From UHGV virus genome UHGV-2010328: a stretch of DNA of 35,365 nucleotides; one strand, given 5' to 3'. Made by a program: the position numbers and the translations under genes. Shown piece by piece: positions 1,869-35,365 of the stretch (positions are counted from its first letter, which is position 1; the number at the start of each line of letters is the position of its first letter). The stretch is from a virus. The notes under the pieces were generated by a model. It was not told the DNA's origin and searched no databases. It worked only from the letters and a program-made list of their open reading frames with translations.

Positions 1869-2092
1869 TATCAAAAGACCTCAATTGTTATTTCATGCGT
1901 AATTATACTAAAAGTATCTTAAAAACAGCAACATTTTACATTGGTGATACCTATATGTTGATTGTCCCTCTGAAGAGGGGGGAGCTGCTTTTACAATAAT
2001 GAATGTAGGGCATTCTGGCGCAGAGCGGTCAGTCTGATAGGGTTGTGTCATAATCGTGTCAGTGCATGCCTGAACTAATACATCTAAGTTGC

Positions 2093-3193
2093 TCACTCTG
2101 TTTCTGCTATCCATTCCGGGATTTTTGCTTCAAGCTCAAGCTGTGTGGTAAAGCCACTGTTATCAATAGAATGCTCAACTTTTGCAATAATCCAGTCCTG
2201 ATTGTCGATGTCGCTTTTAAAGCCTGCCACCGTGCCATGCATTTCGGGGTAGAGTTCAGCGCGACCACGTGCCAGCGTGATGGAGAATGATGCGGCTCCG
2301 CGTTGTAGCTGTTGCCACTTTGCCGCCGCTGCGCGTCTTGCTGCCTGCTCGTTCTGATAAGTCTTGCGTAACACAAACACGTTGCCTTCCGCGCCTTCCA
2401 TATAGTCGCCTTCCCGGCTGCTGCTTTTCTCCTTTTTCGGTTTGCGGCGTTTCACGCTGACTTTTTTCTTTTTCCCGTAATTAAGATCAAGCCAGTAGGC
2501 GCGTACACCCGTATACGCCTCGCGGTCAGCAATGCGAAACTGATGGCGATCGCCGCTGCTGCGTGTGATGGCAAACGATGGCAATGGTTTTCCCTGCGCG
2601 TTCACGCCACCGCCTGGCATGATGAATAACAGATTACCGCTTTTTACCGTGGTGATTGCGCCCAGCATTTCCGCCATGCGCGTAAGGAAGGACATGTCAC
2701 TTTCTTCGGTCTGGTCGGCGTGGTCGATTTCGATATCCATCAGCATTTCGCTAATTTGCGGTTTCAGACCGTACCGATGAGCGATGGCGGATACCACACG
2801 CTCAACGGTCACATCATGCCAGGACACCTCACGTTTAACGTTAAATTCATCCCGAAAATCTGCGCTTCTGGCCGAAATGGTCAGCCTGTCCGGCGGTCCT
2901 TCGTGAGCGATTTCATCAACAATGTAAGTGCCTTTTTCTGTCAGCGGTTCTCCTTTCCAGCCAATGAGAACCGTCAGGCGCGCGCCCCGTGGCGGTAGCT
3001 GCAACTGACCATCCGCATCATCCAGCGTGATGGTGAGCTGGTCCGCCTCAAATCCCCGGTTGTCGGTCAGTGACAGGCTCATCAGGCGCTCTGCCACGCC
3101 TGACAGCGTTTTACCCTCCGCGAGAATATCAAAATCCGGCATTTTCACGGGGTCTGTGCCCTGACTGAGCAATTGCATGGTGGTGTCGGTCAT
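2093..3193 (-). CDS. D: tail protein D (P2 gpD-like)
   Basis: 366 aa from ATG 3193..3191 (MTDTTMQLLSQGTDP...) with GGGAGGG upstream. The in-frame upstream extension to 3325 is rejected. Length and position fit gpD. Confidence 0.8.
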   Translation of the reverse strand: MTDTTMQLLSQGTDPVKMPDFDILAEGKTLSGVAERLMSLSLTDNRGFEADQLTITLDDADGQLQLPPRGARLTVLIGWKGEPLTEKGTYIVDEIAHEGPPDRLTISARSADFRDEFNVKREVSWHDVTVERVVSAIAHRYGLKPQISEMLMDIEIDHADQTEESDMSFLTRMAEMLGAITTVKSGNLLFIMPGGGVNAQGKPLPSFAITRSSGDRHQFRIADREAYTGVRAYWLDLNYGKKKKVSVKRRKPKKEKSSSREGDYMEGAEGNVFVLRKTYQNEQAARRAAAAKWQQLQRGAASFSITLARGRAELYPEMHGTVAGFKSDIDNQDWIIAKVEHSIDNSGFTTQLELEAKIPEWIAETE

Positions 3194-3350
3194 CTGTTCC
3201 CTCCCTGTGCGGCATGGTCGCATGTGCGTGCGGAGGGGGTTACTGCTTTTTGTTGTCGCCGGGTCGGGAGAACGGCGCAGGGGTGAGATTACGCGCGTGG
3301 TGGGTGATGATTGTTGCCGAATCATTTAACGGATACAAGGGGCTGAAGCT

Positions 3351-4535
3351 ATGAGTGAAACTCGTTTTCATGGTGCCCGTGTTACGGAAAATACCGACCT
3401 GGTAACAGCGATTAACGATGTTGATTCCAGCGTTATCGGTATCGTGGCAACGGCGGATGATGCGGACGCGAAGCTGTTCCCGCTGAACAAGCCCACACTG
3501 CTGACCCGCGTCAATGACGTGCTGGGAAAATGCGGGACAACGGGGACGCTTTATCGTGCACTTAAGGCCATCGCAGACCAGGTGAGCACAAAGGTGATCG
3601 TCGTTCGCGTGGCTGAACACAAAGAAGAAGACGGAAAGACGCAGGATCAACTGGTTATCGGTGGTTCTGAGGATGACGGCAGCTATACGGGGATGTATGC
3701 GCTGCTTGTTGCAGAGCAGGATGAAAGCATCGGATACCGTCCGCGTATTCTGGCCGCGCCGGAGCTGGACACGGAGGCTGTAACAAAATCCCTGTGCGTG
3801 ATTGCAGGTAAACTGCGCGCGTTTGTGTATGCCTCATGTTACGGCTGTAACACGATGGCTGAGGCGATTACCTACCGCCAGAAATTCAACGAACGTGAGG
3901 TGATGCTCTTATGGCCGGACTTCATCGCCTACAACCCGAAAAGTGGCAAAAACGAAACGTTCCCCGCGCCTGCCTATGCGTGCGGCCTTCGTGCGTACAT
4001 TGACCATGAGCAGGGCTGGCACAAATCATTGTCCAACGTTCCGGTTAAAAATGTGCTGGGGATGTCGAGGCATGTGTTCTGGTCGTTGCAGGCCGAAGAC
4101 AGCGATGCCAACAGCCTCAACAACAAAGAAATCACGACCATTATTCGTCGCAACGGGTTCCGCTTCTGGGGCAACCGCACACCGGAAACGAACGCCTACA
4201 TCTTTGAGGTGTATACCCGAACCGCACAGGTGCTGGCTGATTCAATTGCGGAAGCGCAGTTTGAAACCATCGACAGTCCACTGACGCCTGCGAATGTGAA
4301 GGATGTTATCAGTGCCATCAGGGCAAAACTGGATTCGCTGGTTACTGCCGGGAAACTGATTGGTGCGGAGTGCTGGTATGACGTGGTGGATAACGGCACC
4401 ACGAATTTACGTCAGGGGCGTGTGCGTATTCGCTACAAATATACGCCCGTTCCGCCACTGGAAGACATGGAGCTTTACCAGACGTTTACTGATGAATACT
4501 TTGAACCCGCATTTGCGGTGCTGGGAGGTGCCTGA
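3351..4535 (+). CDS. FI: contractile tail sheath protein (gpFI-like)
   Basis: 394 aa, RBS AAGGGG before ATG 3351. Followed by tube, E/E', tape measure and U in canonical order. Confidence 0.85.
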   Translation: MSETRFHGARVTENTDLVTAINDVDSSVIGIVATADDADAKLFPLNKPTLLTRVNDVLGKCGTTGTLYRALKAIADQVSTKVIVVRVAEHKEEDGKTQDQLVIGGSEDDGSYTGMYALLVAEQDESIGYRPRILAAPELDTEAVTKSLCVIAGKLRAFVYASCYGCNTMAEAITYRQKFNEREVMLLWPDFIAYNPKSGKNETFPAPAYACGLRAYIDHEQGWHKSLSNVPVKNVLGMSRHVFWSLQAEDSDANSLNNKEITTIIRRNGFRFWGNRTPETNAYIFEVYTRTAQVLADSIAEAQFETIDSPLTPANVKDVISAIRAKLDSLVTAGKLIGAECWYDVVDNGTTNLRQGRVRIRYKYTPVPPLEDMELYQTFTDEYFEPAFAVLGGA

Positions 4536-5047
4536 TGGCTGTGCCAAAACATCTTCGCTTTTTTACGCTGTTTGTGGATGGTGAAAACGAAGTGGGTAAG
4601 GTGACGTCCGTCACTCTGCCTAAGCTGACGCGCAAAACCGACAGCTACCGGGGGGGCGGCATGATGGGTGCGGTAAGTATTGATCTCGGTCTGGAAGACT
4701 CCGCGCTTGATGCGAGCTTTGTCATGGGGGGCGCAGTTCGTGAGCTGTTCCTTAAGTATGGCGGCACGATTGACGGCACGCTGCTGCGTTTTGCGGGTGA
4801 ATACTACACCGATGCAGAAAGTGACCTGTATGAAGTCGAAATGCGCGGACGTGTGACGGAAATTGATATGGGGGAAGCCAAACAGGGCGAAGCCACATCA
4901 CACACTTACGCCATTAAAAACACCTACTACAAGCTGAGTGTTAACGATCGCCCGTTGTGGGAGATTGACCTGCTGAACTTCATTTACCGGAAGGACGGCA
5001 AGGACATTGTGCCCGATCGCATCCGTTCCGCGCTCGGGCTTGGCTGA
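4535..5047 (+). CDS. FII: tail tube protein (gpFII-like)
   Basis: 170 aa. ATG overlaps the FI stop (TGATG). Confidence 0.85.
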   Translation: MAVPKHLRFFTLFVDGENEVGKVTSVTLPKLTRKTDSYRGGGMMGAVSIDLGLEDSALDASFVMGGAVRELFLKYGGTIDGTLLRFAGEYYTDAESDLYEVEMRGRVTEIDMGEAKQGEATSHTYAIKNTYYKLSVNDRPLWEIDLLNFIYRKDGKDIVPDRIRSALGLG

Positions 5048-5101
5048 TAAGTAATATGCAGGCGGCGCAGTGCGTCGCCTCTGACTGAAAGGAGTTTCCT
5101 G

Positions 5102-5467
5102 ATGAAAGAGACGAAAAACATCGATACCGAAAACACGGTAGTTACTGACACTGTGAAAGAAACCAGTGAGCGTGGCGTAAAACTTACCCAACCAATTGAG
5201 CGAGGCGGCGAAAAAATCACGTATGTGGAGATCACCGGGGCTATTGAGCAGGCTGGATCTCTGCGAGATTTGTCGCTGTCTGATGTGCTGAATCTGAAAG
5301 CGGAATCCATGTTTACGCTGTTGTCGCGCGTGACATCACCGCGACTGGATGAAGTGATGATCAAAAAAATGGCATCCCGTGACTTTATTCAGTTATGTGT
5401 GGTTACCGTAAATTTTTTGAGCGGTGCGGACTCTGGCGGGAAGAACGAACAGGCGACGGAAGCCTGA
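5102..5467 (+). CDS. E: tail assembly chaperone E (zero-frame product)
   Basis: 121 aa, RBS AAAGGAG before ATG 5102. Contains the slippery site at 5413-5419. Confidence 0.75.
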   Translation: MKETKNIDTENTVVTDTVKETSERGVKLTQPIERGGEKITYVEITGAIEQAGSLRDLSLSDVLNLKAESMFTLLSRVTSPRLDEVMIKKMASRDFIQLCVVTVNFLSGADSGGKNEQATEA

Positions 5468-5631
5468 TCACGGTTGTGTGCTTTGAGCACATAGAAGACT
5501 TTGTGGCAGATATTGCCGTTATTTTTAACTGGTCGCCCGCCGAAATCTTCATGATGACGCCCGGCGAAGTGGTTAGCTGGCGTGAGCGGGCGGCACTTCG
5601 CAGCGGGAATGCAGACAATGAAGACTCTTGA
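5102..5631 (+). CDS. tail assembly chaperone E+E' (-1 programmed frameshift product)
   Basis: The -1 frame opened at heptamer T_TTT_TTG (5413-5419) continues ...FFERCGLWREERTGDG... to TGA 5629-5631 and overlaps the tape-measure start, as in P2 E/E' and lambda G/GT. Confidence 0.65.
5413..5419 (+). other. slippery heptanucleotide TTTTTTG for -1 ribosomal frameshift (E to E')
   Basis: Zero-frame codons aaT TTT TTG; the -1 frame is open for 72 further codons. Confidence 0.65.
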
Positions 5632-8425
5632 TATCCGGGTCGCTTTCAGCGCCGTTGACAGGCTGACCCGGCCTGCCGAAAACGCCCGCCGCCTGATGGG
5701 GCAGTTTGGTGACTCCATCCAGCGAACGCAGGGGGCGATTAAAAATCTCGAGCGTCAGGCGCGTTCATTTGAGCGCGCCCGCGACGCTGTCAGTAAAGCG
5801 GATGCGGGTATCGTGAAAGCACGACGCCAGCTTAACGCCCTTAATCAGTTACAACGCACGGGTGCAGTGCTCAGCGAAAAACAACAAAAGCTGATGCAGC
5901 AGTTAAGCACCCGGCTTGAACGCCTGAATGAATCGCGCGCACGGGAAATTCAGAAAATGCGGGAGCTTGGCGGAGAGCTGAAACGCCACGGCATTTCCCT
6001 GACAGGCAGCGATAACACCATCCAGCAGGCCATCAGACGCACCGAACAGTACAACAACCAGCTTGAACGCGAACGGCAGGCGCTTGCGCGTGTAACGCGG
6101 GCGCGTGAGCGGTATTCGCGCGCGCAGGAAACTGCGGGAAAACTGAAAACAGGTGGTGCGCTGGCAATTGGTGCGGCAGCGGCGGGCGGCTATGCTGCCG
6201 GGCGTTTTTTGCAGCCCGCGATCGGGTTCGGGAAAGAGATGTCCCGCGTTCAGGCACTGACGCGAATCGACAAAAACAGCCCGCAGTTTAAGGCGCTGCG
6301 TGAGCAGGCGTTAAAACTTGGCTCTGAAACGCAGTTCACCGCAGGCGATGCCGCCAGTGGACAGGCATTTCTTGCAATGGCTGGCTTCACTCCGCAGGCC
6401 ATTCAGGCTGCGCTTCCCGGCGTGCTGAGCATGGCAACGGCTGGCGGTATGGATCTCGGCGAGACGGCGGATATTGGCTCAAATATCCTGACGCAGTTCG
6501 GCCTTTCTGCTGACCAGATGGACCGGGTCGGTGACACACTCACCGCAGCGTTTACCCGTACCAACACTGACCTTCGCGCACTGGGCGAAACCATGAAATA
6601 TGCAGGTCCGGTGGCGGGTAAGCTGGGAATATCGCTGGAGCAGGCCGCAGCTATGGCGGGCGTGCTGGCGAATATGGGCATCAGGGGGAGTGATGCCGGG
6701 ACGGCAATGCGTGCCAGCCTGGCTCGTCTGGCATCACCGCCAAAGGCGGCGGCAGAAGCTCTGAAAGAGCTGGGCGTGTCTGTCTCGGATGCCGGGGGCA
6801 AAATGCGCCCGATGGAAGATCTGCTGGCTGACCTTTATAAAGCTACCCGCAAATACGGGGAAGTTGACCGGGTATCCTTCTTTAAGGACATCGCCGGGGA
6901 AGAGGCTTTCACATCGTTTATGGCGCTCGTTGATGCGGCGGGTGACGGTTCCTTACCCAAACTGAGAAAAGAACTTGAGGGCGCACGCGGTGAGGCTGAA
7001 CGCACAGCAAAGGTTATGGCCGACAACCTTGATGGCGACCTGAAAAATCTCGACAGCGCATGGGAAGGTCTTCGTATTCGCATCAGTGATCTGGTTGACG
7101 GTTCGCTGCGTTCTGTCACGCAGTGGCTAACGCGGGTGGTCTCAAAGGTGACGGCACTGGCGCAGGCCCATCCTGTACTGACGCGCCAGCTACTGATTGC
7201 AGGCGGTGCGCTGCTGGCAGTGACTGCAACCGTAGGCTCGTTGTCGCTTGCTCTTGGTGTGCTTGCTGGCCCACTGGCAAAACTGCGTCTTGGTTTTTCC
7301 CTCCTGACCGGATCAATGAATGCTGTCAGGCTCCTGCCAGCACTATGGGGAATGGTGACGGGTTCCGTTTCTTTGCTGGGAGGTGCTATCGGGGCGCTGT
7401 TCAGTCCGGTTGGTCTTATCGTGGCTGCGCTTGCCGGAGCTGCCATTCTTATCTGGAAATACTGGGATCCCATCAGGGCATTTTTTGCCGGGGTGTTCAG
7501 CGGGATTATGGAAAGGCTGACCCCGTTGCGCGAAACCTTTGAACGGTTTGGCCCTGTTTTTGACGTAATCGGAAGCGGGATCAGCCAGGTGTTTAACTGG
7601 TTTAAATCGCTGCTGTCACCGATGGAGTCCAGCAAGGAAACGCTGGATAAATGTGCCAGTGCTGGCGAGGTATTCGGTAACGTTCTTGGTGGTGCGTTAC
7701 AACTTGTTCTGACACCTGCAAAAATGTTGCTGGATACGCTGGCGTGGATACTTGAAAAGCTCGGTGTGCTTCCGGATGAAGCGGAAAGGGCGCGCAAGAA
7801 AATCGAAGACGCACAGCGTGCGGCCATTCTTCAGGACAAGGTTGCCTTGCTTCAGGGGGACTTGGCGAAAATCAATCCGCCGAAGCCTGTGGAAAATGGC
7901 AATGGCACCGGAAGCGATAAACCCAAAGACAACAAACCGCTCACAGACAGCAATACCGGTACGCTACGCAGACTCAGCAAGATTGCTGATAACACAGGTA
8001 AGCTGGTTGATGAGACGAAAAAACGCATTGGTCCTGGCGATATTGTCTTTAAGAACCTGCCCCGCGCACTTGCTGTTCGTGGGGAGTGGCAGGAGCGGAA
8101 GATTGCGCAGGTCAGTAAGCCTGCCCCCGCAATTAATATCACACCCGTAGTCCCGGCTCCGCTGCCTCCGGCGCTGGTCCCTGTTGTTGCGGCCAGCTCC
8201 CGCCCGGTGGCGGAGGCCATACGATCGCCAGTGGCATCAGTTCCTGCAACTTCCCGTAACCGGGAGCCTGCTGTCTCCGGATTTGGCGGTGAAATTCATG
8301 TTCATCTGCATAACGTTGTTACGCAGAATCCCAGCGAACTGGCGAAACTGGTCGGTGAAATGGTCAGGGCAGAAATGGAACGGCGCGCCCGTGCCGGGCG
8401 TGGCAGTTTTTACGATAAAGATTGA
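5609..8425 (+). CDS. T: tail tape measure protein (gpT-like)
   Basis: 938 aa from ATG 5609 (ORF frame opens at GTG 5582). Coiled-coil N-terminal half, Gly/Ala-rich hydrophobic middle. Position between E' and U. Confidence 0.85.
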   Translation: MQTMKTLDIRVAFSAVDRLTRPAENARRLMGQFGDSIQRTQGAIKNLERQARSFERARDAVSKADAGIVKARRQLNALNQLQRTGAVLSEKQQKLMQQLSTRLERLNESRAREIQKMRELGGELKRHGISLTGSDNTIQQAIRRTEQYNNQLERERQALARVTRARERYSRAQETAGKLKTGGALAIGAAAAGGYAAGRFLQPAIGFGKEMSRVQALTRIDKNSPQFKALREQALKLGSETQFTAGDAASGQAFLAMAGFTPQAIQAALPGVLSMATAGGMDLGETADIGSNILTQFGLSADQMDRVGDTLTAAFTRTNTDLRALGETMKYAGPVAGKLGISLEQAAAMAGVLANMGIRGSDAGTAMRASLARLASPPKAAAEALKELGVSVSDAGGKMRPMEDLLADLYKATRKYGEVDRVSFFKDIAGEEAFTSFMALVDAAGDGSLPKLRKELEGARGEAERTAKVMADNLDGDLKNLDSAWEGLRIRISDLVDGSLRSVTQWLTRVVSKVTALAQAHPVLTRQLLIAGGALLAVTATVGSLSLALGVLAGPLAKLRLGFSLLTGSMNAVRLLPALWGMVTGSVSLLGGAIGALFSPVGLIVAALAGAAILIWKYWDPIRAFFAGVFSGIMERLTPLRETFERFGPVFDVIGSGISQVFNWFKSLLSPMESSKETLDKCASAGEVFGNVLGGALQLVLTPAKMLLDTLAWILEKLGVLPDEAERARKKIEDAQRAAILQDKVALLQGDLAKINPPKPVENGNGTGSDKPKDNKPLTDSNTGTLRRLSKIADNTGKLVDETKKRIGPGDIVFKNLPRALAVRGEWQERKIAQVSKPAPAINITPVVPAPLPPALVPVVAASSRPVAEAIRSPVASVPATSRNREPAVSGFGGEIHVHLHNVVTQNPSELAKLVGEMVRAEMERRARAGRGSFYDKD

Positions 8426-8437
8426 GGAGTCATGGCC

Positions 8438-8926
8438 ATGATGATGATCTACGGCATGTTTGTTTTTGAGCTGCGCACGCTGCCGCATCAGCAGTTACAG
8501 CAAAACAAAAGCTGGCGGCATGTGAAAAATGAACGCGTTAACCGTTCAGCAAGCTGGCAGTATATCGGTGCAGGTGATGATCGCATCGTTCTTTCTGGTG
8601 TGCTTTATCCTGAAATTACAGGTGGCGAAGTGTCGCTGTCGCTGCTGACCACGCAGGCGTATACAGGACGACCCTGGCCTCTGATTGATGGCGTCGGGCA
8701 GATTTACGGCATGTATGTCCTGACCGGAACGAATACGACCCGTTCCGAGTTTGATCGCTACGGTAAGGCGAAAAAGATAGAATTTTCACTGACACTTGAA
8801 CGCTGTGATGAGGATTTGCGGGAGCGCCTGCAATCCTCATCATTCAGCGATATGCTGTCCGGCTTCAAAGATAAGGTGACATCATCTCTTAACAGCGCGG
8901 CCAGTTCAGTTAAAGGGCTGTTCTGA
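8438..8926 (+). CDS. U: tail protein U (gpU-like)
   Basis: MMMIYGMFVFELRTLPHQQLQ resembles the P2 gpU N-terminus. GAGGAG lies 8 nt upstream of ATG 8438 (ORF-track start 8432 is too close to the RBS). Confidence 0.8.
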   Translation: MMMIYGMFVFELRTLPHQQLQQNKSWRHVKNERVNRSASWQYIGAGDDRIVLSGVLYPEITGGEVSLSLLTTQAYTGRPWPLIDGVGQIYGMYVLTGTNTTRSEFDRYGKAKKIEFSLTLERCDEDLRERLQSSSFSDMLSGFKDKVTSSLNSAASSVKGLF

Positions 8927-8938
8927 TTTAACACAAAA

Positions 8939-8972
8939 ACCGCTAATGGTCAGATTAGCGGTTATTTTGTTT
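8939..8972. terminator. bidirectional intrinsic terminator between U (+) and invertase (-)
   Basis: Stem accgctaat / attagcggt with a 6-nt loop, flanked by an A-run upstream and T-run downstream, so it reads as a terminator on both strands. Confidence 0.6.
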
Positions 8973-9549
8973 CCTGACTCTTCTCAATTGTTCCGCTTGA
9001 TTCTCCTGCGGGGTGGTAACGATAAATCGTCGATATACCAATGCCGTAAATTATTGCCAGTTGTTTTCTGTCGTGCCCGTTTTTGATCAGCCTTGCTATT
9101 TGCTCATGCTGTTCTTTTGTCAGCTTCGGGCGACGTCCGCCTGTGCGCCCCCGTGCGCGCGCTGCCGCCAGTCCGGCCAGTGTGCGTTCAACAATTAATT
9201 CACGTTCCATTTCAGCCAGGGCATCCATCACGTGGAAGAAAAAACGCCCCATTGGAGAAGATGTATCTATGCTGTCGGTCAGACTGCGAAAATTAATTCC
9301 TCGCTCCCGTAGTTCCCCGACGAGAGAAATCAGATGTTTCATGCTTCGCCCGAGGCGATCCAGTTTCCAGACAACCAGCGTGTCACCTTTTTGAAGGCGC
9401 TTTAAAGCGCGTTTTAATCCCGGTCGGTCTGTCTTTGTCCCGCTTAATTTATCTTCAAATATTTGTTCGCATCCTGCACAAACAAGAGCGTTTCGTTGCA
9501 GGTCTGTATTCTGGTCATTTGTTGATACCCTTACATAGCCAATCAGCAC
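8962..9549 (-). CDS. serine recombinase, DNA invertase (Gin/Hin/Pin/Cin family)
   Basis: Likely GTG start 9549..9547 giving MLIGYVRVSTNDQNTDLQRNALVCAGCEQIFEDKLSG..., near-identical by recollection to the Mu Gin / Salmonella Hin N-terminus including the catalytic Ser in YVRVST. ORF-track start is TTG 9567. Confidence 0.9.
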   Translation of the reverse strand: MLIGYVRVSTNDQNTDLQRNALVCAGCEQIFEDKLSGTKTDRPGLKRALKRLQKGDTLVVWKLDRLGRSMKHLISLVGELRERGINFRSLTDSIDTSSPMGRFFFHVMDALAEMERELIVERTLAGLAAARARGRTGGRRPKLTKEQHEQIARLIKNGHDRKQLAIIYGIGISTIYRYHPAGESSGTIEKSQETK

Positions 9550-9603
9550 ACTGAATCTCCCGTCCAAAAGCGCAAATCATGCCATGCAGGCCAGAAACGG
9601 CCA

Positions 9604-9629
9604 TTATCTAAAACCTCGGTTTGCAGGAA
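9604..9629. other. gix/hix-like 26-bp inversion crossover site (site 1)
   Basis: ttatctaaaacctcggtttgcaggaa; its reverse complement ttcctgcaaaccgaggttttagataa matches the Gin/Hin pattern TTC..G.AAACC-GA-GGTTTT.GATAA. Lies between the invertase start and the promoterless fibre segment. Confidence 0.75.
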
Positions 9630-10490
9630 ACGATAAACAAGGCTTCTGGTGCATTGCAGAAAAACCAGAACGGTGCGGATATTCCAGGGAAAGATACTTT
9701 CACAAAAAATATTGGTGCAGCGAAAGCGGCCAGCGAAAGTATCAATATTGGAGGAGATAGCAGCAACTGGACGACAGCACAGTTTATTGCGTGGCTGGAG
9801 TCTCAGGGGGCATTTAATCACCCATACTGGATGTGCAAAGGTTCATGGTCTTACGCCAATAATAAAATTATTACAGATACAGGTTGCGGGAATATTCAAC
9901 TTGCTGGCTCGGTGGTTGAAGTTATGGGCACCAAGGGCGCAATGACTATTCGCGTCACTACTCCAACAACTGCAACAAACGGTACAGCAAAAGCGCAATT
10001 TACTTATATTAATCATGGTGACACCTACGCGCCTGGCTGGCGTCGCGACTGGAATCGTGCTGGCGATACCATGACTGGGGAACTGATAATCACATCACAG
10101 AATGCTTTAAGGATGATTGCAGGAAATTATGGTGCAATTCTGCGACAGGATGGTGGCAGCTTGTATCTGTTATTTACTGCCAGTGGTGACCAGTACGGTA
10201 GCTGGAATGGTCTTCGTCCATTCTATATCGCACTTAATACTGGCCTTGTTACCATGGGGCACGGTCTGAATGTTAACGGGCAGGTTGTCCCATCCAATTA
10301 CATTAATTTTGACTCGCGCTATATACGAGATATTCGTCTGGGTACGCGTGTTGTTCAGACCATGCAAAAAGGCGTGATGTATGAAAAATCAGGCCATGTA
10401 ATTACGGGGCTTGGCATTGTTGGTGAAGTTGATGGCGATGATCCGGCTGTTCAGGCCAATACAAAAATACATCAATGGCACATGGTATAA
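9612..10490 (+). CDS. promoterless alternative tail-fibre C-terminal variable segment (Sv'-type), expressed only after inversion
   Basis: Frame opens inside gix site 1 with no ATG (TTG at 9621). Ends ...SRYIRDIRLGTRVVQTMQKGVMYEKSGHVITGLGIVGE..., shared with the C-terminus of H. Followed by its own assembly gene. Confidence 0.7.
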   Translation, partial: NLGLQETINKASGALQKNQNGADIPGKDTFTKNIGAAKAASESINIGGDSSNWTTAQFIAWLESQGAFNHPYWMCKGSWSYANNKIITDTGCGNIQLAGSVVEVMGTKGAMTIRVTTPTTATNGTAKAQFTYINHGDTYAPGWRRDWNRAGDTMTGELIITSQNALRMIAGNYGAILRQDGGSLYLLFTASGDQYGSWNGLRPFYIALNTGLVTMGHGLNVNGQVVPSNYINFDSRYIRDIRLGTRVVQTMQKGVMYEKSGHVITGLGIVGEVDGDDPAVQANTKIHQWHMV

Positions 10491-10509
10491 CATTGCACAG
10501 GTATAAATC

Positions 10510-11037
10510 ATGCAGCATTTAAAAAACATCAATTCAGGAAACCCAAAAACTAAAGAGCAATATCAGCTAACAAAGAATTTTGATGTTATCTGGTTGTGGT
10601 CAGAAGAAGGAAAAAACTGGTACGAGGAATTAAAAAACTTCCAGGAAGACACAATAAAAATTCTTTATGACGAGAATAATATTATTGTCGCCATCACCAA
10701 AGATGCCTCCACGCTTAACCCTGAAGGTTATAGCGTCGTTGAAGTTCCTGATATTACAGCTAATCGTCGTGCCGATGATTCAGGGAATTGGATGTTTAAG
10801 GACGGAGCTGTAGTTAAGCGGATTTATACGGCAGACGAACAGCAACAACAGGCCAAATCGCAAAAGGCCGCGTTACTTTCCGAAGCTGAATCAGTTATCC
10901 AGCCACTGGAACGAGCTGTCAGGCTGAACATGGCGACGGATGCGGAACGCGCCCGACTGGAGTCATGGGAACGCTACAGCGTTCTGGTCAGTCGTGTGGA
11001 TACAACAAAGCCAGAATGGCCACAAAAGCCTGAGTAA
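10510..11037 (+). CDS. tail fibre assembly protein (gpG / Mu U-like), partner of the alternative fibre tip
   Basis: 175 aa, [41 protein letters not shown].... N-terminal ~100 aa about 80% identical to the convergent paralogue at 11066-11599. Confidence 0.8.
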
Positions 11038-11042
11038 AAATT

Positions 11043-11062
11043 AAGGCCCGATATCGGGCCTT
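11043..11062. terminator. bidirectional hairpin between the convergent tail-fibre assembly genes
   Basis: Perfect palindrome ggcccgatatcgggcc flanked by A/T-rich sequence. Confidence 0.6.
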
Positions 11063-11065
11063 CTC

Positions 11066-11599
11066 TCATTCTGGTTGTTCGGGAAACGTTACTGGCAGGC
11101 TGGAAGTGTCTGTCGATTCGACTTTCTGCGCATAGTGCATCCACTCGGTTAATTTTTGTTTATTCTCATCGGAAATGATGCCCAGCCGTAGCTGTGAGTC
11201 CCATAGCTGGGTTTTATCCCTGACGAGCTGTAGCAGGCTTTGCTTTTCATTTTCTGCTTGTTGCCTCTGCTCTTCCTCGGTATAAGTTCGCTTTATCACC
11301 ACGCCATCTTTGAACATCCAGTTGCCCGAAATATCAGCCCGGCGGTTTGCTGTAATATCAGGCAACTCAACGACACTTAAACCTTCTGGATTAATTGCCG
11401 ATACATCCTTATCCATAGCAACAATTATTCCCTCGACTGTGTAAGCTAGCTTTATTGTATCTTCCTGGAAGTTTTTTAATTCCTCGTACCAGTTTTTTCC
11501 TTCTTCTGACCACAACCAGATAACATCAAAATTCTTTGTTAGCTGATATTGCTCAACGGTCTTTGGATTACCTGCGACAATGTTCTTTAAATGCTGCAT
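11066..11599 (-). CDS. G: tail fibre assembly protein (gpG-like), partner of the currently expressed H tip
   Basis: 177 aa, [41 protein letters not shown].... Immediately downstream of H on the same strand. Confidence 0.8.
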
Positions 11600-11602
11600 A
11601 AA

Positions 11603-13579
11603 TTACACCTGCGATACGTTATACCATGTTCCGTTAATTAACTTTTGTATTGGTCTGAANNNNNNNNNNNNNNNNNNNNNTTCACCAACAATGCCAAGCC
11701 CCGTAATTACATGGCCTGATTTTTCATACATCACGCCTTTTTGCATGGTCTGAACAACACGTGTTCCTAGGCGAATATCTCGTACATAGCGAGAATCTGA
11801 TTCAGCTTTGGTATATGCACCAATATCTCCTGCTGATGGTTTGTGAGCGGTTGTATATAGTTGCGCCCATCCAGACCAATTAGCATCTGCTGTATCTCGT
11901 CGGGAACGAATATATGCCGGAGCATGGCCGCCGCTGGTCCCACTCCACCCAATAAATAACTCTCCTTCGCCAACTGCCGCTACGCCAGTAAGATGAAGAA
12001 CGTTACCATAAGTAAAAGGATATCCATTGTTGTACGCTTCATACATTTGGATACCTGGCGTACCCTTTGCGCTCCCACTTAATGCTGTAACACGGTTTCG
12101 GGATACTAACGTATTAATATTTATATCGCTGGAACCATCAAATTTAACGCCATTAATATTTCTTGCTGTTTTTAGCTTTGTTGCAGTAGCGGCATTGCCG
12201 GACAACTCCCCAGAAAGGCCACCGCTGAATGTTTGTCGATTGGTCCAAGTATTCGCTGTACTGAGTAACGGTATTTTTTCCCCGCTTGTGCCGAGTTCTC
12301 GTAAACCGAGGTATTCGATAACGGCGGCAACGGTCGATTTCGCAAGAATATCCCGCCCGACTTTTGTCAGAGTTGCCAGGCTGGCGACATCATTCCCCGT
12401 AAAATACGGAAACCTGTCTGCCGCAGTAGCAAGCCCCGCCAGCGCCGTCAGAGTGGCATCTTTCGGTTGCTTACCTGCAAGCGCGTTAGTCATGGTGGTC
12501 GCAAAATTCGGGTCGTTGCCCAGCGCCGCCGCTAACTCGTTCAGCGTATTCAGTGCGTCAGGCGACGAGTCTACAAGTGCGGCAATCGCGGCCATCACAT
12601 AAGCCGTGCTTGCGATCTGAGTATTATTAGTACCTTTTGGCGCAGTTGGCGTTGTTGGCGTTCCGGTCAGCGAAGGACTGTTTAAGGGCGCTTTCTTGTT
12701 CGTTTCATCCATTACCGCCTTAACAGCTTTTGGCGTCGCAGCCAGCGTTTCAGATGTGCTGTTAGTGGCGCTACTGAGCTGAACTATCCCTTTTCGTGCC
12801 GTCGTTGCGTCCTGAGCGGTATATTTTGCGTTAGCAAGGTCATATGCAGCCTTTACCGCCTTTGGCGTTGCCGCCAGCGTCTCAGAATCGCTGTTGGTGG
12901 CGCTACTGAGCTGAACTATCCCTTTCCGCGCAGTGGTAGCGTCCTGTGCGGTGTATTTGCTATTAGCCAGGTCATATGCCGCCTTAACAGCCTTTGGGGT
13001 TGCCGCAAGCGTTTCTGACGTGCTATTGGTGGCGCTGCTAAGTTGAACAAAACCTTTTGCGGTCAGCGAGGCGTCCGGGTGACGTCGTGACTGTTCATGC
13101 TCTTTCAGTTTGTCATCCACGTAATCCACTGTGGCCATCACCATGGTGTTATCCACGGTAAGCGCCACGGTGGCAGTGCTGGATACGGTCAGAATGGTGC
13201 GAAATGTTTGTGCACGTCCGGACCCTTCGGCAACGGCTGGCTTGTAACTTTCGGCAGTATTGCCTACCGCAATCAAATCGCCGTGCTCATCAAACACACC
13301 AATTTCCCGGATCCAGAATCCGCCCGTTTCAGGAGGAATAACCAGCTCCGCAATAATGCGGTTCTGATGTGTTGCGTCCAGGATGACGCGATTAACAGTA
13401 TGTCGCCACACCTCATGCACCAGACGGGTCTGCTTACTGTCTGGTGTGGGCAACGTGCCGTCACCCACGGCCATATGAGTCAGGCGGACAGGCTTACCAT
13501 CTGGCGCGGCTGCCTGAGCTAATTTTTTTGCACCCGTATTGGTGATAACGGTTTTAAATTTTCGTGTTGTGGTACTCAT
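11603..13579 (-). CDS. H: tail fibre protein H (constant N-terminal part 13579..12322; invertible variable part 12321..11603)
   Basis: 658-codon ORF from ATG 13579..13577, with three tandem fibre repeats and gix site 2 inside the coding sequence (..VIEYLGLRE..). The C-terminal 18 codons lie beyond a 21-nt N run, so their frame and the true stop are uncertain. Confidence 0.85.
   Translation of the reverse strand: MSTTTRKFKTVITNTGAKKLAQAAAPDGKPVRLTHMAVGDGTLPTPDSKQTRLVHEVWRHTVNRVILDATHQNRIIAELVIPPETGGFWIREIGVFDEHGDLIAVGNTAESYKPAVAEGSGRAQTFRTILTVSSTATVALTVDNTMVMATVDYVDDKLKEHEQSRRHPDASLTAKGFVQLSSATNSTSETLAATPKAVKAAYDLANSKYTAQDATTARKGIVQLSSATNSDSETLAATPKAVKAAYDLANAKYTAQDATTARKGIVQLSSATNSTSETLAATPKAVKAVMDETNKKAPLNSPSLTGTPTTPTAPKGTNNTQIASTAYVMAAIAALVDSSPDALNTLNELAAALGNDPNFATTMTNALAGKQPKDATLTALAGLATAADRFPYFTGNDVASLATLTKVGRDILAKSTVAAVIEYLGLRELGTSGEKIPLLSTANTWTNRQTFSGGLSGELSGNAATATKLKTARNINGVKFDGSSDININTLVSRNRVTALSGSAKGTPGIQMYEAYNNGYPFTYGNVLHLTGVAAVGEGELFIGWSGTSGGHAPAYIRSRRDTADANWSGWAQLYTTAHKPSAGDIGAYTKAESDSRYVRDIRLGTRVVQTMQKGVMYEKSGHVITGLGIVGEXXXXXXXFRPIQKLINGTWYNVSQV
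11660..11680. other. run of 21 N (assembly gap or masked bases) inside H
   Basis: Directly abuts the 81-bp perfect inverted repeat at 11681-11761. Confidence 0.95.
12296..12321. other. gix/hix-like 26-bp inversion crossover site (site 2), inside H
   Basis: ttctcgtaaaccgaggtattcgataa; 20 of 26 positions identical to the inverted site 1, with the same central GA dinucleotide. Encodes IEYLGLRE of H in frame. Confidence 0.75.
12713..13075 (-). repeat. three tandem 132-bp (44-aa) repeats within H (tail-fibre repeat motif)
   Basis: The string gctactgagctgaac recurs at 12770 and 12902, with a diverged copy near 13034. Protein repeats KG(F/I)VQLSSATNS.SETLAATPKAVKAAYDLAN.KYTAQDATTAR, twice plus one partial. 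Confidence 0.8.
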
Positions 13580-17302: not shown

Positions 17303-17570
17303 CTTTTGCAATATCGTTGCGTAGCTGTTCACGTCTGACCTCTCCGTCCTGATTTCTCTGTTGATTTTCCACGCGGAGTTGCGCCAGCACCTGCTGCATA
17401 TCCTGTACCCCGGTGCTGATGATATTCAGGGTGTCGACGGTACTTTTCAGGGTGCTGGCCTGCGCTTCGTTTCTGGCGTTCTCCCGGCCCAGCGACCACG
17501 ACAGACGCATGGATGTTCCCCATGCGGCAATCAGAAGAAAAGCGACGCCCAGAGAAGTCCATAACCTCAT
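17163..17570 (-). CDS. lysB: i-spanin (Rz/LysB-like)
   Basis: 135 aa with an N-terminal TM helix (LGVAFLLIAAWG) then a coiled-coil; the spanin gene overlaps it. Confidence 0.7.
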   Translation of the reverse strand: MRLWTSLGVAFLLIAAWGTSMRLSWSLGRENARNEAQASTLKSTVDTLNIISTGVQDMQQVLAQLRVENQQRNQDGEVRREQLRNDIAKDECAHALPDARFTDRLRRHAERATASAVSPAYTADADHTGNASPLP

Positions 17571-21211: not shown

Positions 21212-22081
21212 TCAGAAGTCAGCCAGTTGGTCGGAGGCTGCGCCCGTTGCGGTGAACCGGTTCTGCGGATCGCCGTCCTGCGTGCGCAGTTTTTCCTTCA
21301 GTGCTGCCAGCTCTGTGGTCAGTGATGTGATTTTCTGGCTGTCCTGCTGATGGCGGGTTTCCAGTGTATTAAAACGGTCGATAATGTCGGCCTGTGACGT
21401 TGCGACACCTTCCACCGCTTCCTTAATACGGGAGAAACTGGCGTCATCCGCTTTGCGGCCACGGCCAATAATCCCCATAACGCGGTTAAACCACTGGGTG
21501 CCTTCTTCCTGACGTTGTTCGGTGAGTTCGATAAGTTCTGACTCCATAGCGGCGGTAAACATCGCCACGTCTCCCTGCTGACAGTTGAATGTCATCAGTT
21601 GCATACGTTGTTGTGCCGCAAAGGCCAGACGTTCCGTGCCCAGGCTGGCGGGGGTGTCGGTCATTGCCAGCCCGCGCAGGTAAGGGCCTCCCGTGATGGT
21701 TGACTGTGGTTCCAGCTCAATACTGGAGTAAATTTTTTTACCATCGTTAAGCAGGGACATCATGCGAGCGGTCGGCTCAATTTCGGCATACAGTGCCGTG
21801 CGACCTGCCAGCGGGCCATCGGTTATGTCTTCGGTGCTCAACCCCACAACATCGCCCATAGCGGAAAACTCGCTACCGGGGAGTGGTGACAGGATGTGCT
21901 CAATATTCACACGTGCACCATAAACGGACGGGTTATAACTGGTGGCGGCAGCTTTCAGCATGTCGCCGTTGATTTCGCGCCCGTCTGCCGTTACACCGGA
22001 GACAGCCACGCGAAACTTTTTGCGGGATGTCTTTTTTTCATTAGCCATAGTTTTTGCCATCATGACTGGTTCTTCAGTCAT
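21212..22081 (-). CDS. O: capsid scaffolding protein O (gpO-like)
   Basis: 289 aa (internal starts at M7/M8 possible), ...FRVAVSGVTADGREI.... Divergent from P across a 121-bp intergenic region. Confidence 0.8.
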   Translation of the reverse strand: MTEEPVMMAKTMANEKKTSRKKFRVAVSGVTADGREINGDMLKAAATSYNPSVYGARVNIEHILSPLPGSEFSAMGDVVGLSTEDITDGPLAGRTALYAEIEPTARMMSLLNDGKKIYSSIELEPQSTITGGPYLRGLAMTDTPASLGTERLAFAAQQRMQLMTFNCQQGDVAMFTAAMESELIELTEQRQEEGTQWFNRVMGIIGRGRKADDASFSRIKEAVEGVATSQADIIDRFNTLETRHQQDSQKITSLTTELAALKEKLRTQDGDPQNRFTATGAASDQLADF

Positions 22082-22202
22082 GATGGCAAAGCGTAACAGG
22101 CTGATACAAAGGGCTTTTGTTGTAAGAAAACAGTCAGAACAGGGGGTTAAGGAGAACGGTTTCGCGCGCGGGTAATCTTCCTGTAATTACTCAGGGGGAG
22201 CA
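22082..22202. promoter_or_regulatory. divergent late promoter region (P_O / P_P equivalent)
   Basis: Intergenic between the divergent O and P starts. No Ogr site (TGT-N12-ACA) could be pinned down confidently. Confidence 0.4.
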
Positions 22203-25831: not shown

Positions 25832-26209
25832 TTATCCGCGTATATACCTAAAGGACTGAGGTGGTACAGCGCCAGGTATCAATTCATTAAGTGGAATTGG
25901 AGTATCATAGCGCAGAGGGTTTTTTACTTCTATTGCGAATCCCTTGTCTCTTTCTGAAAAATATTCATCAAAAAAATCCCGCGTAATACCTGCATACTTT
26001 TTTGTCATATTCCATAATTCATCTGGCTGAGATGACAAAACCTTTTCAATTTCAAACTCACCAATTACCTTTCCGACGGGCATTGTTGCATAAATAATAA
26101 CCGCTCGGACTTCTTTGTTCCGAAAAATTGTCTTCCTGAATTCGAATTTTTTATATCCATTTAAAATGGATTCAGCGAACTCTGGTTTAATCGACAATAA
26201 AATTTTCAT
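25832..26209 (-). CDS. stand-alone ASCH/PUA-like domain protein (125 aa)
   Basis: MKILLSIKPEFAESILNGYKKFEFRK... matches the ASCH-type N-terminal motif. ATG 26209..26207 overlaps the upstream gene by 23 nt. AT-rich. Confidence 0.55.
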   Translation of the reverse strand: MKILLSIKPEFAESILNGYKKFEFRKTIFRNKEVRAVIIYATMPVGKVIGEFEIEKVLSSQPDELWNMTKKYAGITRDFFDEYFSERDKGFAIEVKNPLRYDTPIPLNELIPGAVPPQSFRYIRG

Positions 26210-27242
26210 TAACCTTTCCCGCGCTTAAAACAGCTTTGAAGTGAACATCACTTAACGTGAAGAACCCTGAATAGCTTGGAGTATAACCTAAAATACTCAA
26301 CAATTCATCTCTAATTATTCTTTTTTGCAAAGGGAAATTGTAAGTTAACTTAATTACATGTGGAGGATAACATCTGCTATAATAAGCATATAATTCTTCA
26401 TCAGAAAAAATACTGGCGCCTCCACAATAAGACTTAAACTCATCATATGATAAAAATTCTCGAATGTTTTTATACTCTTGTAATGTACAAACAGAAGTAA
26501 CCACCGACCGATATTTCGCCGCTCCCTGTCCATCTGTCGTTCGATAAATAATTATATTATCTCCTGGCTGAAGAAGCTCCATGCCTTTCATCGCGCCAAT
26601 ATATATCTTATGAATACTATTAGTATAAGTAACATCTTCTAAAATAGAATCATTTTCATTTTTTAAAATTGACTCCGGGAAAAGCCTTGAATGAAACTCA
26701 GGTTTAATGGCTAATAAAAAATTTCTTCCATTCATTTTTATCATAGGATAATTATTATAAAATGATGCTGCTGATGGCTTCCAGTTAAAATCCTTAAAGT
26801 AGACACCTTCACAACCGTTTTCCGTCTCAAGATTTTTTCTTGAACACAATTTAAAACCATAGCGTTCAAGTAAACGAATCAATCCTTGATGTTTGTCAAA
26901 GATAGTAACGTACACTTCCTGAATATCATGAGGCATTGCAAAGTCAAATATTTTTCTTACAAATCTCTCCCCCATTTTCGTTCCACGAGCATCAATTTTA
27001 AATGTTCCGCATTTAAGACGTTTTTTCATAGGGAAAGATGGGGTCATGTCATTTAATTCCTCATTTTCAATTTTGAGGTATAAAAAACCATCTATTTTCC
27101 CATAATCATCATAAGATACGTATGCTTTCTCATTTCTTTTCTTTAAGAACCAGCTTTCAAAAGTTGGGTAGTCATTTTTAAGCGAGTCAAAAAAAACATC
27201 TGAGAGGTCAACCTTCCCAAATTCGACATAACTAAGAGACAT
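26187..27242 (-). CDS. GNAT-like acetyltransferase fused to a C-terminal ASCH/PUA-like domain (351 aa)
   Basis: ATG 27242..27240 with AGGA RBS (ORF-track 5' extension rejected). N-terminal half has GNAT-like core motifs (ARGTKMGERFVRKIF ... EVYVTIFDKHQGLIRLLERYGFK); C-terminal half has ...FLLAIKPEFHSRLF... like the downstream ASCH-like protein. Domain assignment is by eye. Confidence 0.5.
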   Translation of the reverse strand: MSLSYVEFGKVDLSDVFFDSLKNDYPTFESWFLKKRNEKAYVSYDDYGKIDGFLYLKIENEELNDMTPSFPMKKRLKCGTFKIDARGTKMGERFVRKIFDFAMPHDIQEVYVTIFDKHQGLIRLLERYGFKLCSRKNLETENGCEGVYFKDFNWKPSAASFYNNYPMIKMNGRNFLLAIKPEFHSRLFPESILKNENDSILEDVTYTNSIHKIYIGAMKGMELLQPGDNIIIYRTTDGQGAAKYRSVVTSVCTLQEYKNIREFLSYDEFKSYCGGASIFSDEELYAYYSRCYPPHVIKLTYNFPLQKRIIRDELLSILGYTPSYSGFFTLSDVHFKAVLSAGKVNENFIVD

Positions 27243-27354
27243 TGTGCCATCCTTTTCAGTAGGTATTTTGCAAAAAACGTTACTGTATCTCAAAATATAT
27301 GTAAATAAACTTAGATCAAAAAAATGCTTACTAACGCTTTGTCTTACCGGGGCT

Positions 27355-33012: not shown

Positions 33013-33291
33013 TTAATCTGCTTTCTGAATTTCAGCTTCTGAATCCATACAAATAATTTCGATATAGGGTTCATCGCCATTAATCTTACGTGCTTTTTCA
33101 GCTTCGCTAATGATTCCGTGTACAGTCTGGTACGGAAGTTCTACGGTCAGGCGCGTGCCGTTCAGATAAACGTAAGTAGCTGCATTTTTTTCTGATGGGA
33201 CAACTCCATCAATAGCTGATGCGCGCAATAACAGTTCACCGCGAAAATCAATAAAACGGATAAATACACCTTGTGCATGCTCTTTGATCAT
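33013..33291 (-). CDS. hypothetical early protein
   Basis: ATG 33291..33289 (MIKEHAQGVFIRF...); the longer track ORF would overlap the upstream gene. Confidence 0.45.
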   Translation of the reverse strand: MIKEHAQGVFIRFIDFRGELLLRASAIDGVVPSEKNAATYVYLNGTRLTVELPYQTVHGIISEAEKARKINGDEPYIEIICMDSEAEIQKAD

Positions 33292-34387: not shown

Positions 34388-35365
34388 ATGAGCATAAAAT
34401 CAATTCCGGGAGGGTATCTTCTTGACATGCGCCCGGAGGGGCGTAAAGGCAAACGCATTCGTAAAAAATTTAAAACGAAATCGGATGCAGTTTTATATGA
34501 GCGGTGGGTGCTGGCGCAACAGCATAACAATGAGTGGAAAGGAAACTCTATTGATCGCCGTCCTCTGTCAGTGCTTATTGACTTGTGGTGGAAATACCAC
34601 GGCCAGCTAATGAAGTCAGGGCATAACACGCGCCTTAAATTGCTGCGCTTGAGTGAGGCAATGGATGACCCGTGCGTGCATAAACTTAATACAACGATGC
34701 TCACCGAGCTACGTGTGTCCAGGATAGAGCAGGGGATACAGCCCAGCACCATAAATCGAGAGATTGGGGCGTTAAGCGCGATGTTTACCGCACTCATCTC
34801 ATCCGGCCATTTTCTTAACGATAACCCCGTTCAAGGCCTTAAAGGAATGAAGGTTAACGAGCGCGAAATGGGATATCTGAGTAAGTCTGAATGTGTTCAG
34901 TTGCTGGATGCACTGGCTGAAAATCCCGATGAGCGGCTGGCTGTCGAAATCCTTCTGTCGACCGGGGCGCGATGGGGCGAGGTAGCGGCACTGGAGCAAC
35001 GCCGCGTTCTGCATTGTCGAATCACTTTTTCAAAAACGAAGAACAGCAAAAACCGTACCGTTCCTATTTCTGAAAGCCTGTTTGAAAAGATCAAAAAACG
35101 GGGCGGGAAACTGGTGTTTCCGACGCTGGATTATTCATTGGTTCGCGATGTCATCAAAACGGTCGCACCTGATGTTCCTGACGGCCAGGCTGTTCATGCG
35201 CTGCGCCACACCTTCGCCAGTCATTTCATGATGAACGGTGGCAATATTCTGACGCTCCAGAAAATTCTGGGGCACGCAAAGATTCAGACAACGATGATTT
35301 ATGCCCATCTTGCGCCGGATTACCTGCAGGATGCGGTGAGGTTTAATCCACTAGGAGGTGCTTAA
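34388..35365 (+). CDS. int: tyrosine integrase (P2 Int-like)
   Basis: 325 aa from ATG 34388, with catalytic-region motifs ...GARWGE..., HALRHTFASH and ...IYAHL.... Last gene of the element, downstream of C as in P2. Confidence 0.9.
   Translation: MSIKSIPGGYLLDMRPEGRKGKRIRKKFKTKSDAVLYERWVLAQQHNNEWKGNSIDRRPLSVLIDLWWKYHGQLMKSGHNTRLKLLRLSEAMDDPCVHKLNTTMLTELRVSRIEQGIQPSTINREIGALSAMFTALISSGHFLNDNPVQGLKGMKVNEREMGYLSKSECVQLLDALAENPDERLAVEILLSTGARWGEVAALEQRRVLHCRITFSKTKNSKNRTVPISESLFEKIKKRGGKLVFPTLDYSLVRDVIKTVAPDVPDGQAVHALRHTFASHFMMNGGNILTLQKILGHAKIQTTMIYAHLAPDYLQDAVRFNPLGGA

Follow-up and report, generated by a model that had tools for sequence, protein, structure and literature searches.

Gene layout of the tail region

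The DNA analysed here is the virus genome UHGV-2010328, a single stretch of 35,365 nucleotides (nt) that is called the window below. It carries a contractile-tail module of the P2-like (Peduoviridae) type, in which FI, FII, E/E' with its −1 frameshift, T, U and D are all present. The subject of this text is the orientation of the FI-to-U part of that module, and how the genes on either side of the resulting junction may be expressed. According to a map of the open reading frames (ORFs) of the window combined with Pfam matches, FI-to-U lies on the plus strand, divergent from D across 157 base pairs (bp) and convergent with a gene for an invertase; D, H and the baseplate genes lie on the minus strand. 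Both statements had been made in an earlier sequence-only reading of the same letters, and its coordinates proved right. In P2's own record, FI-FII-E-E'-T-U-D-ogr run in the same direction as V-W-J-I-H-G, as that reading had stated; this canonical order, with FI-FII-E-T-U-D as a single co-directional operon, is absent from the window. Relative to P2 the block is thus inverted, over a span of about 5.7 kilobases (kb), for which 5.6 kb had been given.

Gene D, encoding a tail or baseplate hub protein of 366 amino acids (aa; Pfam PF05954), occupies 2093–3193 on the minus strand. It starts with an ATG at 3193 that is preceded by GGGAGGG, and its product is 98.4% identical to gpD of Escherichia phage P88. 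Downstream of D on the same strand, ogr (332–592) encodes an Ogr/Delta-type zinc-finger late activator with the pattern CX2C-X24-CX4C (PF04606, expect value (E) 5e-14). Between D and ogr are about 1.5 kb of ORFs with a low content of guanine and cytosine (GC), at 917–2114 on the minus strand. Upstream of D, the 157-bp spacer at 3194–3350 is the predicted bidirectional late promoter region, with a promoter PD directed leftwards and a promoter PF directed rightwards.

On the other side of the spacer are the plus-strand genes. The tail sheath gene FI (3351–4535; PF04984, PF22671 and PF17482) is 99% identical to that of P88, and it is followed by the tail tube gene FII (4535–5047; PF04985, E 7e-47). 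The tail assembly chaperone E (5102–5467) has a weak match to PF10109 (Phage_TAC_7); its extended form E+E' (5102–5631) involves a −1 frameshift at T TTT TTG (5413–5419) into an ORF in the −1 frame at 5395–5631, and a 'GpE family' protein is annotated at the equivalent place in P88 and IHE3034. The tape measure gene T (PF10145, E 7e-58) extends from about 5618 to 8425, its start following the P88 annotation within an ORF that is open from 5582. The inverted block closes with U, a tail protein gene (8432–8926; PF06995, E 1.5e-38).

Its right end is marked by a two-way hairpin terminator at 8938–8963, between the convergent genes U and invertase, which was detected both by a terminator scan of the two strands and by an inverted-repeat search. 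Similarity to relatives that have no invertase ends at about 8932. The Gin/Hin-type serine invertase itself (8962–9549, minus strand; PF00239 and PF02796) is cargo in the G-to-tail 'moron' position. Its ORF is listed as 8962–9567, and the GVG start at 9549 was read from the sequence; the DNA is approximately 91–95% identical to gin of phages Mu and D108. H follows at 11603–13579 on the minus strand, as do further baseplate genes.

Relatives and distribution of the inverted order

Positions 1900–9700 match P88 at 97.1% identity over 98% of their length, in one collinear piece that spans both junctions of the block (megablast), and 12 further phage records match the same region at 94–96%. Among the Xuanwuvirus relatives P88, P884B11, 500465-2, 520873, Shae_phiSM, PhiR44_2 and Chuche, the segment consisting of D, spacer, FI-U and invertase is collinear at 95–97%, and gene order and strands in the annotation of P88-like phages are identical to those in the window. 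Because the rest of the window also matches these phages, at 94–95% identity over 71–75% (for P88, 95.1% over 71% of positions 10366–35365), sequence similarity assigns the window to a P88-like prophage (Xuanwuvirus, Peduoviridae). The genus level corresponds to about 70% genome-wide similarity; the overall product for window and P88, an approximate figure, is near or above this value. The variable parts of the tail fibres differ between the window and the P88-like phages, as does some of the cargo described further below.

The annotation of some of these reference records is to be read with care. In that of P88 (NC_026014), an ogr gene that is 98% identical to the one in the window has been left unannotated at 34476–34733, and a 43-aa 'hypothetical protein', gp50, has been called across the D-FI promoter spacer (33155–33286). 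In the record of Shae_phiSM (OR565851) the product names have slipped, so that D bears the name ogr and the sheath the name D.

The inverted order is common in bacterial chromosomes. A 1.2-kb query across the D/FI junction was searched in 5426 complete Escherichia coli genomes, and 1355 of them contain the divergent junction in one piece; the U/invertase junction is present in 621. As a negative control, a synthetic P2-like junction was made by joining the U stop of this lineage to its D start. Both halves of this construct occur in 1415 E. coli genomes, and none of these contains the junction itself. In an O157:H7 prophage that has no invertase, other cargo follows U, and FI-U is still opposite to H and D. 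The O157:H7 prophage of strain PV15-279 belongs to the same lineage and has decayed; in it, FI, FII, E and parts of D and T have been replaced by the insertion sequences (IS) IS30 and IS1203 at 3824–9026 of the extracted locus. IS-mediated decay of prophages of this type accounts for the partial matches to the D/FI junction in O157 genomes.

The wider reach of the arrangement was assessed by tblastn of D and FI against a phage collection, together with inspection of the annotated regions. Adjacent and divergent D and FI genes are present in Enterobacter phage phiT5282H (Novemvirus), in the Salmonella phages SEN4 and SEN5 (Senquatrovirus), in the Klebsiella phages 3LV2017 (Reginaelenavirus) and ST16-OXA48phi5.4 (Reipivirus), and in Serratia phage KSP20, of which a fragment has been deposited as AB452988. 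All of these also have D followed by ogr, and the spacer dyad discussed in the next section is conserved in them. Their proteins are 56–76% (FI) and 63–76% (D) identical to those of the window; they have no invertase, and different cargo follows U. The canonical T-U-D-ogr order, as in P2, is found in Klebsiella phage KP12, whose D is 52% identical to that of the window; for D of P2 itself the value is about 53%. Five genera of Peduoviridae recognised by the International Committee on Taxonomy of Viruses thus share the inverted order, and the canonical order is therefore typical of P2 and does not define the family. The inverted order has already been visible for years in the public records of P88 and the four other genera. 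An explicit description of the inversion was not found in the searchable literature, and the papers on P88, SEN4/5 and Serratia PP4 are silent on it.

A survey with one genome per bacterial species, based on alignment of D, yielded 80 loci, which were classed by local tblastn. Of these, 61 have the inverted order (60 clearly, plus one, L050, in which FI is truncated or disrupted), with D 61–97% identical to that of the window, and they come from more than 25 genera of Enterobacterales. The remaining 19 are canonical, with D only 48–53% identical. Hosts of the inverted type include Escherichia, Salmonella, Citrobacter, Klebsiella, Enterobacter, Kosakonia, Serratia, Pectobacterium and Brenneria, and also Erwinia, Pantoea, Edwardsiella, Hafnia, Yersinia, Xenorhabdus, Photorhabdus, Providencia and Morganella. 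One D-FI locus, 97% identical to that of this E. coli prophage, stands on a 226-kb contig (NZ_JBQPOM010000071.1) labelled as a Firmicute, 'Vagococcus sp. WN89Y'; contamination or mislabelling of the assembly is the likely cause. In a neighbour-joining tree of D, a single branch splits 60 inverted from 21 canonical sequences. Since one branch separates the two types, the simplest reading of the tree is that one ancient inversion took place, which would now mark a large clade of P2-related phages of Enterobacterales.

Orientation of the block and the adjoining invertible segment

Two other explanations for the orientation of the block need to be considered. The sequence-only reading had offered misassembly as the alternative to a real, lineage-specific rearrangement. 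That a 5.7-kb block should have been wrongly oriented in this one sequence is suggested solely by the expectation carried over from P2 synteny, and the idea has practically no probability left: both junctions are contiguous in independent phage genomes and recur in the E. coli chromosomes counted above, the alternative junction occurs in none, and the ends of the block hold no repeats that could confuse an assembler. A real rearrangement is supported instead by the collinearity of every close phage relative, by the presence of the arrangement in 1355 complete E. coli genomes, and by its extension to five phage genera and more than 25 host genera. Programmed inversion, in which the Gin-type invertase or another recombinase would flip FI-U and the window would represent one of two states, draws on the fact that an invertase gene abuts the block and that a genuine invertible segment adjoins it. 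It is nevertheless about as improbable as an assembly error. The inverted-repeat search returned no repeats pairing 3194–3350 with 8927–8961; the gix cores, at 9611 and 12303, bound only a 2.7-kb tail-fibre segment; the other orientation is absent from all 1415 genomes; relatives without an invertase keep the same orientation; and a flip would part both operons from their shared promoter region. The FI-U block is fixed and not switchable, and the invertase is not responsible for its orientation.

The segment on which the invertase may be expected to act lies at 9600–12325 and is bounded by gix-like inverted repeats (9600–9629 and 12296–12325). It holds two alternative C-termini of H and two tail-fibre assembly genes (Pfam Caudo_TAP, twice). 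The gix core AAACCNNGGTTT is present at both boundaries, and one further match, with one mismatch, is found at 26694 in unrelated cargo. The segment is Mu-like, and a gix-like site TTATCTAAAACCTCGGTTTGCAGGAA is present. In the orientation seen here, the H C-terminus at 11603–12296 and the assembly gene at 11066–11599 would be expressed, and the alternative set at 9621–11037 would be silent.

The sequence-only reading had itself allowed that close relatives might routinely show this arrangement, which would make it ordinary for the lineage. This is what the synteny comparison found; because close relatives routinely have the same order, the observation is correct, but the arrangement is ordinary and lineage-typical.

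The D-FI spacer

With FI-U inverted, D has no gene ahead of it that is read in its own direction, so its promoter has to lie within the 157-bp spacer or close to it. The sequence-only reading had likewise called for a promoter of D's own, and had suggested a search of the spacer for Ogr-type elements on both strands. Alignment of spacers from five genera brings out a single conserved dyad, TTGTTGT...ACAAC. In the window, the Ogr-type activator dyad is TGTCGCCGGGTCGGGAGA (TGT-N12-AGA) at 3254–3271, with its centre at 3262.5, and the extended conserved form, TTGTTGTC...AGAAC, spans 3250–3273. TGT-N12-ACA is the published consensus of P2 Ogr-dependent late promoters, and in phage Smp131 the promoters PP' and PO' have been described on the same 18 bp (PMC3931495). 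The exact consensus is present in KSP20, 3LV2017 and SEN4, and TGT-N12-AGA is found in the window, phiT5282H and ST16-OXA48phi5.4; the window dyad therefore agrees with the dyad of Ogr-dependent late promoters of the P2/186/P4 type with one mismatch.

Across the 61 related loci, 56 have TGT-N12-A(C/G)A in the spacer, nearly always 75–88 nt upstream of the FI start, and in these 56 the 12 inner bases of the dyad vary freely. Scans of the window alone would have missed the site. The exact TGT-N12-ACA motif has 6 matches in the window against 8.7 expected, none of them in the D-FI spacer, and with one mismatch allowed there are 170 matches against 163 expected. Within one genome the bare dyad motif cannot be told from chance matches, and the site came to light only through alignment of related spacers. 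A generic sigma-70 scan found no convincing promoter in the spacer, which is uninformative because late promoters are activator-dependent.

When 56 distinct spacer sequences are aligned on the dyad centre, conserved elements are seen to flank the dyad at mirror-image distances. On the FI side these are GCGTG, then a −10-like gA..AT at bases 44–49, then cgAACTCA. On the D side they are GTT, a run of CGCGCGC, and then TGn with a hexamer at bases 44–49 (columns At..Tt.Ca). For the window this predicts a −10 hexamer of PF, GATGAT (consensus gA..AT), at 3306–3311 on the plus strand, and an extended −10 element of PD, TG-C-GACCAT (TGnAAnCAT in relatives), at 3214–3222 on the minus strand, with the hexamers at bases 44–49 to the right and to the left of the dyad centre, respectively. 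Transcription would then start at about 3318 (plus strand) for FI and about 3207 (minus strand) for D; each start would lie about 55–56 nt from the dyad centre, and 111 bp would separate the two. Dyad and −10-like elements facing both ways together lend support to the claim that D has a promoter of its own.

The predicted geometry of PF is that of the P2 promoters pF, pO and pP, where the activator site is about 55 nt from the start. The P2 record lists one 'activator binding site; pO, pP promoters' at 3057–3087, between starts at 3016 and 3127, which are likewise 111 bp apart. The pO/pP region resembles the D-FI spacer in having divergent late units some 150–170 bp apart and a single midway dyad about 55 nt from each annotated (P2) or predicted (window) start; it differs in the gene pair, P/O as against D/FI, and in that the D and FI starts are predicted.

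Two further places in the window have similar sequences. In the O-P spacer (22049–22202) the same TTGTTGT-N12-AGAAC is found at 22117–22140, followed towards P by CGCGCGCG and TAATCT; in this phage, the dyad presumably serves pO and pP jointly as their activator site. Within a DUF2570/LysB-like gene, TCGTGGTCGCTGGGCCGGGAGAAC at 17478–17501 (minus strand) shares 20 of 24 positions with the D-FI dyad, spacer included. As the lineage has no gap before V, this might be an internal late promoter for R-S-V... tail genes; no −10-like element was found at the expected distance from it.

Expression of the inverted tail genes

Taken jointly, these observations point, with a probability of roughly 0.8, to an old, fixed, clade-wide inversion that left the tail genes in three units, with D and FI expressed divergently from a shared Ogr-type dyad. 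Of the two inversion breakpoints, one would lie between U and D and the other in the variable stretch that separates the tail-fibre genes from pF. Instead of two units there would then be three, namely (R-S-)V-W-J-I-H-tfa, FI-to-U, and D followed by ogr; the FI-to-U unit would end at the two-way terminator facing the tail-fibre/invertase cargo. A single dyad-symmetric Ogr-type site, centred at 3262.5 and about 55 nt upstream of both predicted starts, would serve PD and PF, much as the single activator site of P2 serves the divergent promoters pO and pP. From this comparison of spacers it is most likely that phages of the inverted lineage have, besides pO/pP, one more bidirectional late promoter with a shared site.

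Much of the P2 F operon has been retained. Window and P2 have the same genes, the same internal order from FI to U, the E/E' frameshift heptamer, D followed by ogr, and an Ogr-family activator with a TGT-N12-ACA-type site. They differ in the inversion of FI-U and in the place of D, which is the last gene of the pF operon and abuts U in P2, and which starts its own unit in the window. The symmetry of the activator site may have eased toleration of the inversion, as the D side would have needed only a −10 element at the right distance. In almost all relatives ogr follows D after some 40–100 nt, and the two genes probably form one unit there. Late activity of PD would also boost ogr, as this gene is placed after D. 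Whether the inversion did turn the one-way pF of a P2 ancestor into a second bidirectional late promoter through the dyad symmetry of the Ogr site, placing D and ogr under Ogr control, is judged to be an even question.

Several points weigh against this reading. The sequences compared are related, so that the counts overstate the number of independent observations. The right half-site of the window is AGA and not ACA, 5 of the 61 relatives have no match to the dyad pattern, and a further one (L051) has its only match at an unusual position. The positions of the promoters have been predicted from conservation and P2 geometry; a PD start at about 3207 leaves a leader of only 14 nt, and the extended −10 element (TGn) on the D side could function without an activator. 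A foreign low-GC stretch of 1.5 kb parts D from ogr in the window, which makes co-transcription of the two uncertain here, and ogr probably also has a promoter of its own, by analogy with P2.

These reservations lead to the one rival that accepts a real, lineage-wide inversion. Under it, D, and with it ogr, would be transcribed from an activator-independent sigma-70 promoter of the extended −10 type, or from a start within the 5'-terminal part of FI, and the dyad would serve pF only. The TGn-plus-hexamer element on the D side is indeed of the extended −10 type. Furthermore, P2 has to make Ogr before its late promoters can become active, and transcribes ogr from a sigma-70 promoter of its own; activator-independent expression may therefore be needed for a D-ogr unit as well. 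The D-side hexamer, however, keeps the exact mirror distance (bases 44–49) across diverse relatives, which is expected only if the dyad matters on that side. There is also no −35-like conserved block, and pO/pP of P2 provide a direct precedent for sharing. This rival is accordingly rather unlikely, if far more credible than either of the rival explanations of the orientation, and divergent expression of D and FI from the shared dyad remains the preferred reading.

Cargo genes

The cargo between D and ogr comprises about 1.5 kb with 32–35% GC and ORFs of 134, 188 and 68 aa. None of them has a significant match in Pfam, PADLOC or PHROGs; weak PHROG matches (E ~0.005) were obtained for the 134-aa ORF only. 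The stretch is present in just 2 of the 5426 complete E. coli genomes (strain M10, 99.9%). At the same place P88 has a gap of 43 nt, the O157 prophage has a YecA-family gene, and IHE3034 has another hypothetical gene. Because relatives hold nothing or differing genes there, the D-ogr gap is a cargo insertion point; the region after U is likewise one.

A second piece of cargo that distinguishes the window from P88 lies at 25.8–27.3 kb. It is a gene pair of 33–37% GC on the minus strand (25832–27293) that matches the PADLOC candidate defence system PDC-M11, with an A component of 368 aa (E 5e-131) and a B component, an ASCH-domain protein of 125 aa (E 6e-51). The pair is situated between the replication genes and the portal gene, which is the classic P2 cargo position.

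Implications

For annotation, the distribution of the inverted order is a reason for caution, as not all Peduoviridae keep P2 synteny. One in four complete E. coli genomes harbours a prophage whose tail block is inverted in this way, so that a 'synteny break' flag raised automatically at this locus is a false alarm.

For phage biology, the shared PD/PF promoter and the D-ogr unit appear to be the only element that is mildly new; no description of a bidirectional pF or of D-ogr feedback was found in the searchable literature. If the idea is true, D and ogr would form a late unit with positive feedback, which P2 achieves only by read-through of its long F operon. The locus would then also illustrate neatly that operon inversions can be tolerated where the activator site is symmetric. 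The conserved D-FI dyad in any case provides a concrete, testable prediction for a very common prophage lineage.

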